Made by a program: the position numbers and the translations under genes | Source: Escherichia coli | Lineage (GTDB): Bacteria; Pseudomonadota; Gammaproteobacteria; Enterobacterales; Enterobacteriaceae | DNA: 64,000 bases | Strand: one strand, 5' to 3' | NCBI RefSeq assembly: GCF_003334335.1 | Contig: NZ_QOWQ01000005.1 | Shown here: positions 32,157 to 49,455 of the stretch, piece by piece | Layout of the letters: every line of letters begins with the position of its first letter | Numbering within the stretch: position 1 is the first letter of the stretch | The notes under the pieces: model-generated | Database searches by the model: none | What the model was told of the DNA's origin: nothing | What the model saw: only the letters and a program-made list of their open reading frames with translations

Positions 32157-32165
32157 AGCTATAAG

Positions 32166-32196
32166 AAAAGGGCGGAGATCATCTCCGCCCTTTTTA
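32166..32196 (+). terminator. Rho-independent terminator after gyrB
   Basis: aaaagggcggagatcatctccgcccttttt: perfect GC-rich stem flanked by A and T runs. Confidence 0.8.
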
Positions 32197-32272
32197 TTTC
32201 TGCAATCCGCAATTATCATCCCGCAAATCTATACTTTTTGGGTCAACACGTAACGCTTTACAGGTGATTATC

Positions 32273-43464: not shown

Positions 43465-45126
43465 ATGAGTGATATAGCATTAACGGTCAGTATTCTGGCT
43501 TTGGTGGCAGTCGTCGGTTTGTTTATCGGCAACGTCAAATTTCGCGGCATAGGATTAGGTATTGGCGGCGTGCTGTTTGGTGGGATCATCGTCGGCCATT
43601 TTGTTTCTCAGGCGGGGATGACATTAAGTAGCGATATGCTGCATGTTATTCAGGAATTTGGCCTGATCCTGTTCGTTTATACTATCGGGATTCAGGTAGG
43701 GCCGGGCTTCTTTGCCTCATTGCGCGTCTCCGGATTACGCCTCAACCTGTTTGCTGTTCTGATCGTCATCATCGGTGGTCTGGTTACCGCCATCCTGCAT
43801 AAACTGTTTGATATTCCACTGCCGGTAGTGCTGGGGATTTTCTCCGGTGCGGTTACCAATACGCCAGCGCTGGGGGCAGGGCAGCAGATTTTGCGCGACC
43901 TGGGTACACCAATGGAAATGGTCGATCAGATGGGGATGAGTTACGCGATGGCGTATCCATTCGGCATTTGCGGGATTTTGTTCACCATGTGGATGTTGCG
44001 GGTTATTTTCCGCGTCAATGTCGAGACAGAAGCTCAGCAGCACGAGTCTTCACGCACCAATGGCGGCGCGCTGATCAAGACTATCAATATTCGCGTTGAG
44101 AACCCTAACCTGCATGATTTAGCCATTAAAGATGTACCGATTCTCAACGGCGACAAAATTATCTGCTCGCGTCTGAAACGCGAAGAAACCCTAAAAGTTC
44201 CTTCGCCAGATACCATTATCCAACTGGGCGATTTGCTGCATCTGGTGGGTCAGCCAGCGGATTTACATAATGCGCAACTGGTGATTGGTCAGGAGGTCGA
44301 TACTTCGCTGTCCACGAAAGGCACTGATTTGCGCGTCGAGCGTGTGGTGGTCACCAATGAAAACGTGCTCGGAAAACGTATTCGCGACCTGCACTTTAAA
44401 GAACGCTATGACGTTGTTATCTCGCGCCTGAACCGTGCCGGGGTCGAACTGGTCGCCAGTGGCGATATCAGCCTGCAGTTCGGCGATATCCTCAATCTGG
44501 TGGGGCGTCCGTCCGCAATTGATGCCGTTGCCAATGTGCTGGGGAATGCGCAGCAAAAACTGCAACAGGTTCAGATGCTGCCAGTGTTTATTGGCATCGG
44601 GCTAGGCGTATTGTTAGGTTCTATTCCCGTCTTTGTGCCAGGATTCCCGGCCGCGTTGAAACTGGGGCTGGCGGGCGGACCGCTGATTATGGCGTTGATC
44701 CTCGGGCGTATCGGCAGTATCGGCAAGCTGTACTGGTTTATGCCGCCAAGCGCCAACCTCGCGCTGCGGGAGCTGGGGATCGTGCTGTTCCTCTCGGTCG
44801 TTGGTCTGAAATCTGGTGGGGATTTTGTGAATACCCTGGTCAATGGCGAAGGGCTAAGCTGGATTGGTTATGGTGCCCTGATCACCGCCGTTCCGCTGAT
44901 TACTGTTGGCATTCTGGCGCGGATGTTAGCCAAAATGAATTACCTGACCATGTGCGGGATGCTGGCAGGTTCCATGACCGATCCTCCGGCGCTGGCGTTT
45001 GCTAATAATCTTCATCCAACCAGCGGTGCGGCGGCGCTCTCTTACGCCACTGTCTATCCGTTGGTAATGTTCCTGCGCATTATCACCCCCCAATTACTGG
45101 CGGTGCTCTTCTGGAGTATCGGTTAA
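43465..45126 (+). CDS. yidE: Putative AAE-family transporter YidE with central TrkA-C (RCK_C) domains (553 aa)
   Basis: Trimmed to [16 protein letters not shown]…; two membrane halves separated by soluble RCK_C-like region. Confidence 0.85.
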
Positions 45127-45839
45127 CTCTTTTCCGGGTGGAGTCGCCGTAAATGGTACTCCACCTGGTATTCGCTGGCATTTCTGAACATCACTGAATA
45201 ATTCAAAAACTCCCCGCTCTCGCTATATGACAACGAGGTGATCCGCAGCAGTGGCGTGTGTTCCGCTACCTTCATTTGCCGCGCCAGCAGTCTATCGGCG
45301 AGCACTGGCGTCAGGCTTTCATAATTACCGCCAATCAAAATCCCGCACTCTTGTTCAATATATTCAAACTTCGACCCTTCCAGATGTTGCAGCGAAAGAT
45401 TACGGAACAGTTTTACCGGCATATAGCTGTCTTCCAGCATCAGCGGTTTCCCTTCCACAAAACGAACGCGACGGGAGAAGTAGATCTGCTCGTTGATTTG
45501 AATCCGTAACTGGCTGGCAATGGCCGGAGGCGCAGGCATGATTTCAAAAATCAGCACCTGGCTGGTGACCGTTTTTCCCTGCCGTTTTAACACCTCCACC
45601 AGCCCGGTCAGACTGGCGGTTTGATGCAGTACATCTTTGCGCACCAGGTAAGTGCCACTACCGTGGCGGCGGACCACCAGCCCCCACGCTACCAGCAGGT
45701 CAATGGCTTTACGGATGGTCATCCGCGATACCGCAAACTCTTCCGCCAGCTTTTTTTCACCGGGAAGAAGGCTGTTTAGCGTGAAATCTGCGGAGTTAAG
45801 TCGAATTCTTAACCGCTCCGCAATGCTTTTGTAGATCAT
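45123..45839 (-). CDS. yidP: GntR/HutC-family transcriptional regulator YidP (238 aa)
   Basis: Trimmed to [19 protein letters not shown]…; GntR HTH plus UTRA-like C-terminus; the 53-codon upstream extension in the ORF track is unsupported. Confidence 0.85.
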
Positions 45840-46134
45840 CTCTAGATCTCTTTTTTGCCTGCAAGCCCGGGTAATGCGCACACAAGTTCTGCTTAATCGA
45901 TTGAAAAAACATCTTTTTTTTAAAGATGTGTTCGATGCTGTGTACCTGTGCTCACAGAGGTCTACTTTTTCGCGAAAACGTAGATCTCTACCGCCCAACG
46001 AAAAGCATGAAAGCGATCACGAATCCCATTGGGTCGTCATGTTCTGCCGATCGCATCTTCCTATCCTCGCTCCAGGCCTGCCGCATAACCAATCAGGCTT
46101 CCTACTTACAGAATTGAGAAAAGAGGATGTGGAA

Positions 46135-49455
<3,321 letters not shown>

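Follow-up and report, generated by a model that had tools for sequence, protein, structure and literature searches.

The 64-kb stretch of DNA analysed here (the window) includes the Escherichia coli yidE-yidP / glvC-glvB-glvG-yidL locus, which is present in 4279 of 5426 complete E. coli genomes. On the minus strand lies yidP (45123–45839), whose product we recognised as a GntR/HutC-type regulator of 238 aa from its translation, the RefSeq annotation, Pfam matches of its orthologues and an alignment with NagR/YvoA. The yidP start is at 45839 and the divergent glvC gene starts at 46135, leaving a spacer of 295 bp (45840–46134) with the extent given in the first-pass annotation; this spacer is identical to that of K-12 MG1655. 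Across 45123–48600 (3.5 kb), the sole difference between the window and MG1655 is at position 47239, which is C here (CAG, Gln) and T in MG1655 (TAG, amber). Given that the codon is not an amber codon, glvC and glvB form one intact gene in the window (46135–47751, plus strand), encoding a fused PTS EIICB of 538 aa. The next gene, glvG (47751–48565), is frameshifted, as it is in K-12. The E. coli K-12 glv homologues of Klebsiella aglA and aglB have been reported to be cryptic or truncated (PMC5309279), and YidP is still listed among the uncharacterised E. coli transcription factors (PMC4797297, PMC9308461). A literature search returned no YidP binding, footprint, ChIP or expression data.

Orthologues of YidP combine an N-terminal GntR wHTH domain (PF00392) with a C-terminal UTRA domain (PF07702). 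Residues 2–233 of YidP align with Bacillus subtilis NagR/YvoA (2WV0, 4WWC; E = 3e-24), and the recognition helices are nearly identical (SRMTIRKA in YidP, SRMTVRQA in NagR); NagR is the closest structurally solved relative of YidP. NagR has the idealised operator GTGGTCTAGACCAC, with 6 nt between its two recognition segments; G-5 and G-4 are contacted by Arg38 and Arg48 (PMC4333415).

Using a profile of YidP orthologues, we retrieved 80 loci from distinct species. The yidP gene and the EIICB gene are divergent neighbours in 77 sequences, window included, with YidP identities of 72–97% across these 77 genomes, and the spacers between the two genes fall into length classes of ~220, 297 and 341 bp. 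Column-level conservation counts given below refer to 75 distinct aligned spacers. An Rfam search of positions 45700–46300 (E ≤ 10) returned only a chance sRNA match inside glvC.

The 34-bp palindrome and its half-sites

Positions 45956–45989 form a 34-bp near-palindrome, which we consider a candidate YidP operator on the basis of a repeat finder, shuffled sequences, the 75-genome alignment and a half-site matrix. Its arms (45956–45972, AGAGGTCTACTTTTTCG; 45973–45989, CGAAAACGTAGATCTCT) are paired at 15 of 17 positions, with no spacer between them. Pairing to this extent was reached in none of 2000 shuffles, and just three such palindromes occur in the 64-kb window. The only other near-palindromes with 17-nt arms in the window are at 32163–32197 (AAAAGGGCGGAGAT-C-ATCTCCGCCCTTTTT), which is a typical intrinsic terminator, and at 2893–2927 (ACAAATCCCAATAA-CTTAA-TTATTGGGATTTGT), which is A/T-rich.

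Over the 75 genomes, all enterobacterial, the palindrome has the consensus TGTCYA-nnTTT-n6-AAAAG-TAGACA, with its symmetry centre at 45972.5. The core arms are TGTCYA at 45959–45964 (GGTCTA in the window) and TAGACA at 45981–45986 (TAGATC in the window), and the positions between them include TTT at 45967–45969, six variable nucleotides and AAAAG at 45976–45980 (A-tract, 45976–45979). The arm columns carry 1.0–2.0 bits, mostly 1.7–2.0, with 1.0 at the Y and M positions; the centre and the outer flanks of the palindrome vary freely. Conservation is higher in the right arm and its AAAAG flank than in the left arm. Between the start of the left arm and the end of the CRP-like site described below, the alignment contains no indels, such that the elements in this interval keep a fixed register in all 75 aligned spacers. 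The inverted half-sites, TGTCYA / TAGACA, carry the G(-4)-TCTA core, to which the conserved arginines and the wing of GntR/HutC regulators bind in dre-type operators; this relates them to NagR sites as a resemblance of sequence only.

We built the half-site matrix from species other than E. coli. By this matrix, the E. coli left arm ranks first of ~128,000 window positions (16.3 bits; the next best position scores 12.6 bits). The right arm of E. coli matches only weakly, scoring 6.4 bits versus a median of 16.6 bits in other species, and the E. coli sequence departs from near-invariant columns at 45959, 45979 and 45985. These departures, taken together with the weak right arm, suggest that in E. 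coli the operator may be undergoing decay together with the glv genes, which would fit relaxed selection. Other E. coli strains have T at 45959, and in one strain (L084) two substitutions raise the symmetry, giving an almost perfect palindrome. We found no further copy of the operator pattern elsewhere in the 64 kb. There were no recurrent matches to the half-site matrix at fixed positions beyond the two arms, including in the conserved CATGT block at 46038 near the putative glvC promoter.

The yidP/glvC locus of Citrobacter sp. 18056, the sole copy retrieved from that genome, is a diverged, paralogous locus with a 1003-bp spacer. At about nt 830–865 of this spacer lies an operator-like palindrome in which both arms are changed, to GTATAC / TATACA. 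We were unable to assign a specificity determinant for the GTATAC arms, since the recognition helix of the regulator is unchanged.

The first-pass annotation had drawn attention to repeated agatctct motifs in the spacer. These motifs are part of an exact 9-nt direct repeat, TAGATCTCT, at 45843–45851 and 45981–45989. By our own calculation, ~0.16 exact 9-nt direct repeats are expected by chance in 295 bp, and the repeat is not significant on its own. Each copy of the motif nonetheless falls within a conserved element: the copy at 45982–45989 forms the outer portion of the palindrome's right arm, and the copy at 45844–45851 is a conserved half-site-like element adjoining the yidP start codon. 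Read on the minus strand, this third half-site copy (45843–45851, AGAGATCTA) overlaps the yidP Shine-Dalgarno sequence. Its consensus in other species is AGAGGTCTAC(A/T)G, located immediately before the yidP ATG. We found AGAGGTCTAC in at least 39 of the 75 spacers, and 63 of the 75 score >5 bits with the half-site matrix, making this site, which was scored separately from the arms, a third recurrent match. The ribosome-binding site explains part of this conservation. The distance from the third half-site to the operator is 65 bp in short spacers and ~140 bp in long spacers.

Putative promoters and the proposed control of yidP and glvC

On the glvC side of the palindrome, conservation and likeness to the consensus point to a CRP-like site, AAGCATGAAAGCGATCACGAAT, at 46003–46024 (centre, 46013.5). 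The CRP consensus is a 22-bp site with the core TGTGA-N6-TCACA. We found TGA-N6-TCAC in 76 of the 77 spacers, and its distance to the operator is invariant in the 75 that were aligned. In E. coli, this site reads CATGA-AAGCGA-TCACG, which matches 7 of the 10 CRP core positions. By chance alone, roughly one match of this quality would be expected in each spacer; the case for a putative CRP site at 46003–46024 therefore rests on conservation and geometry. A search of the literature returned neither CRP binding data for glvC nor evidence that CRP controls this gene. Separately, we considered a leader peptide, 36 aa long in E. coli, that would start at the conserved ATG at 46007. We rejected this candidate: the ORF is anywhere from 2 to 50 aa long depending on the species, and its ATG is replaced by TTG in Mangrovibacter.

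A cross-species scan with promoter matrices points to TATCCT at 46062–46067 (plus strand) as a candidate −10 element for glvC. In 72 of the 75 genomes, a −10-like TAnnnT lies at a constant distance from the CRP-like site, and the four commonest hexamers (TATTCT, TATGCT, TACTCT and TATCCT; 72/75 genomes) all keep T1, A2 and T6. Relative to a start 7–8 nt past TATCCT, which is itself only predicted, the centre of the CRP-like site would be at −60.5 to −61.5. The same type of scan points to a candidate yidP −10 element at 45977–45982 (minus strand), which reads TACGTT in the window and TACTTT in 61 of the 75 genomes. This hexamer overlaps the right arm of the operator, and columns 45977, 45981 and 45982 are nearly invariant. 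A further pair recurs across species on the plus strand, with TAGACA of the right arm as a −35 element and AACCAT (46003–46008) as a −10 element. A strict consensus promoter scan found no promoter in the E. coli spacer, and a terminator scan of 45700–46300 found no terminator-like site. Our search of the literature, including the supplements of PMC3415461, yielded no transcription start data for yidP or glvC.

In ~220-bp spacers, the left arm is only ~43 nt away from the yidP ATG. With a distance this short, the operator must overlap either the core promoter of yidP or its transcript start, and this forced overlap makes autoregulation the most secure part of our interpretation. For glvC, the expected arrangement depends on the promoter. 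Should glvC depend solely on the CRP-dependent promoter (−10 at 46062), the operator would be centred near −101, which is unusual for repression; should it be transcribed from the TAGACA/AACCAT promoter, the −35 element of that promoter would lie within the operator.

The glvC leader contains a short inverted repeat at 46074–46100 (plus strand; AGGCCTG ... CAGGCTT), with core GGCC at 46075–46078 and GGCT at 46096–46099. The four core pairs are kept in 57–63 of 69 distinct sequences, and other genera have compensatory changes (GACC/GGTC in six, plus GGCT/AGCC). The loop varies in length from 17 to ~60 nt across genera. RNAalifold gave no consensus structure for the leader, and its fold was no better than those of shuffled sequences. 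The repeat may be a 5′-terminal mRNA hairpin or a DNA site.

These features, all of them read from sequence, are consistent with a model in which YidP, bound to the 34-bp palindrome, represses the promoter of its own gene and also controls the glv (alpha-glucoside PTS) operon, which would be CRP-dependent and is largely decayed. We put the probability of this model at roughly 0.6. The divergent yidP and glv genes would then share the 295-bp spacer as their control region. With no inducer, YidP would occupy the palindrome either as one extended dimer or as two dimers, one per arm, and in the two-dimer version the T or A tract next to each arm would give its dimer a weak second half. Overlap of the palindrome with the probable −10 element and start site of yidP would let YidP repress its own gene. 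The right arm would double as the −35-like TAGACA, 41 bp upstream of the CRP-like site, and the CRP-like site would activate the glvC promoter from about −61. YidP would gate glv transcription from the palindrome, and an alpha-glucoside-derived effector would release it.

The palindrome could instead have a function unrelated to YidP, either as back-to-back promoter elements (outward −35-like TAGACA together with the yidP −10 element) or as the site of some other dimeric protein. Both arms do read TAGACA outward, a match to TTGACA at five of six positions. The plus-strand TAGACA/AACCAT pair and the minus-strand TACTTT recovered by the matrix scan also fit this account, and the better conservation of the right arm and its AAAAG flank relative to the left arm is expected if promoter constraints are added there. 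However, the matrix scan found no conserved −10 element suitably spaced on the left side of the left arm, and the symmetric T-tract/A-tract and dre-like half-sites fit the adjacent HutC regulator. Moreover, promoter and operator roles are compatible, and often overlap in divergent control regions. We consider it unlikely that the palindrome is anything other than a YidP site.

The A/T-rich segment and its inverted repeat

The segment between the yidP ribosome-binding site and the operator (45852–45955) is A/T-rich. It is 104 nt long in Escherichia, 106 nt in 35 other long spacers and 31 nt in the short class. Across this segment and its equivalents in loci L007–L079, length is constant and sequence conservation is almost nil. 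This combination suggests a constraint on the spacing or phasing of the third half-site and the operator.

Within this segment, a repeat search recovered the perfect 8-bp inverted repeat with a T5 spacer that the first-pass annotation had flagged: ACATCTTT at 45909–45916, TTTTT at 45917–45921 and AAAGATGT at 45922–45929. The flagged repeat (45909–45929) extends to 11 nt with one mismatch, and the 34-bp palindrome lies 40 bp beyond it. Perfect 8-bp inverted repeats with spacers of ≤10 nt were held by 4.6% of 5000 dinucleotide-preserving shuffles of the yidP/glvC spacer, and 34 of them occur in the 64-kb window (~1 per 1.9 kb). For the 104-nt variable segment, an 8-bp arm was reached in 1.5% of composition shuffles. 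The flagged repeat is mildly unusual relative to chance, not remarkable.

The segment carrying the flagged repeat (~45857–45955) could not be aligned with its counterpart even in E. albertii, despite 97% identity of the YidP proteins, and it is missing from all species with a ~220-bp spacer. Among the six E. coli sequences examined, the repeat is unchanged in four; one has a mismatch in an arm and another has a change in the loop. When we scanned the flagged segment with the half-site matrix, no 12-mer scored >3 bits. We conclude that the flagged repeat is, as far as these comparisons indicate, a lineage-specific feature of E. coli, located in the A/T-rich variable segment between the yidP ribosome-binding site and the putative operator, and we assign no conserved function to it.

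Other sequences differ in this segment. In E. albertii, nt 59–86 of the spacer hold a different 10-bp perfect inverted repeat, ACATTGAAAA-N8-TTTTCAATGT, a few bp from the position of the E. coli repeat; the two have in common only the left flank ATTGAAAA. A conserved inverted repeat in the variable segment was considered more generally and rejected: repeats at p ≤ 0.05 occur in 10 of 41 long spacers, but at inconsistent positions. In E. coli MB53, an IS4-like ISVsa5 element (1185–2393 of the retrieved sequence) lies between the flagged repeat and the operator, at a point equivalent to about position 45947 of the window, and is flanked by the duplicated target GCTGTGTAC. This insertion would cut yidP off from its presumed promoter and operator. 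The MB53 sequence has an intact 6-phospho-alpha-glucosidase gene.

The flagged repeat might act as RNA, forming a hairpin in a long yidP 5′ leader that, with U6 on the minus strand, would resemble a weak attenuator or stabiliser. As RNA, it is predicted to fold into a hairpin of −7.6 to −10.5 kcal/mol. The minus-strand fold, at −7.6 kcal/mol (z = −3.6), has GAUGUUUUUU after the stem, and the repeat would be transcribed if yidP transcription starts near 45970, in the operator. However, only two of the eight pairs in the stem are G-C and no terminator was called; instead of the G+C-rich stem and U-run of an intrinsic terminator, the repeat has an A/T-rich stem with a U6 on the minus strand only. 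The lack of conservation of the repeat also argues against a role in the yidP leader, as does the E. albertii repeat, which has no U-run on the yidP strand. We regard an RNA function of this kind as very unlikely.

Finally, it is hardly credible that the flagged repeat serves as the YidP operator for glv: the repeat is perfectly palindromic, lies in the appropriate intergenic region, is modestly rarer than chance, is mostly unchanged among the E. coli sequences and is close to the position of the E. albertii repeat, but it is not conserved outside E. coli despite YidP being 72–97% identical in 77 genomes, the whole segment is lacking in ~220-bp spacers, it bears no likeness to the conserved half-site or to HutC-type sites, its arm or loop is altered in two E. 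coli strains, and the inverted repeats in the variable segments of other genomes are inconsistent in position. The general proposal of the first-pass annotation, a YidP operator in the divergent spacer, is very probably correct and is supported by the conserved palindrome, where we predict the site to be, whereas the sequence chosen for that role is not, being neither conserved nor similar to the half-site. Note that the EMSA probe proposed with the flagged repeat (45890–45950) would miss the conserved palindrome (45956–45989) entirely.

With YidP binding to the palindrome as the preferred reading, the comparative analysis gives a precise candidate operator, 45956–45989, for an uncharacterised regulator, with G45960 and its partner at 45985 as the predicted critical bases. 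It also provides a draft of the control region that consists of the putative operator, the CRP-like site, the −10 element and the leader repeat.

Comparison with known regulatory systems

The arrangement upstream of glvC resembles that of class I CRP-dependent promoters such as lac, in that a TGA-N6-TCAC core is located about −60.5 to −61.5 from the start predicted by a conserved TAnnnT, together with a weak −35 element. At lac, CRP is centred at −61.5, and such geometry is typical of CRP-dependent sugar operons; class I sites may also be centred near −71.5 or at further such positions. The glvC site of E. coli differs from those of class I promoters in matching just 7 of the 10 core positions.

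The K. pneumoniae agl genes (aglA, encoding an EIICB, and aglB, encoding a phospho-alpha-glucosidase) are the working counterpart of the E. coli glv genes, to which they are orthologous, and are accompanied by the same divergent GntR-type regulator. Klebsiella/Raoultella spacers contain the palindrome as well as the CRP-like site and the −10-like hexamer. In contrast to agl, glvG is frameshifted in K-12 and in the window, glvC has an amber codon in MG1655, and the E. coli operator is off consensus at three near-invariant columns. A literature search found no published operator mapping for Klebsiella agl or E. coli glv. The physiological payoff of the control region is likely to be small in E. 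coli itself because the glv operon has decayed in K-12; the alpha-glucoside system works in Klebsiella/Raoultella.

The closest parallel for the palindrome itself is the dre site, which is bound by NagR in B. subtilis and by DasR in Streptomyces. The regulators share the wHTH and UTRA domains, and YidP aligns with NagR over its full length. The YidP half-sites, (A)TGTCTA / TAGACA(T), correspond to GGTCTA / TAGACC, the two halves of GTGGTCTAGACCAC, and retain the guanine that Arg48 contacts. As with dre, the site is in the control region of a sugar PTS/catabolic operon that adjoins the regulator gene. The palindrome is probably an ordinary repressor operator in a divergent sugar-utilisation control region, with one unusual feature, the wide spacing of its half-sites.

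This spacing is where the palindrome and dre part. The recognition segments of the NagR site are 6 nt apart and its DNA-binding domains sit side by side, whereas the candidate YidP arms are 16 nt apart rather than juxtaposed as in the dre-type operators of GntR/HutC regulators. The equivalent guanines, at 45960 and in the complement of 45985, lie at a distance of 25 bp, compared with 7 bp in the NagR site. In addition, a conserved T-tract and A-tract separate the candidate YidP arms, and a third half-site copy lies at YidP's own ribosome-binding site. The half-site spacing matches no solved GntR-DNA complex, and may bear on how dimers of the HutC family engage DNA.

We speculate that YidP-type HutC regulators recognise a “split dre”, in which the distance between two canonical half-sites exceeds that in every solved GntR-DNA complex by ~18 bp, with phased T/A tracts between them and a third half-site on the regulator's own ribosome-binding site. 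We hold this proposal only tentatively, and think it possible but somewhat doubtful. If true, it would call for an extended, splayed conformation of the dimer or for a DNA-looping tetramer. In either case, the binding geometry would be one so far undescribed for this very large family.
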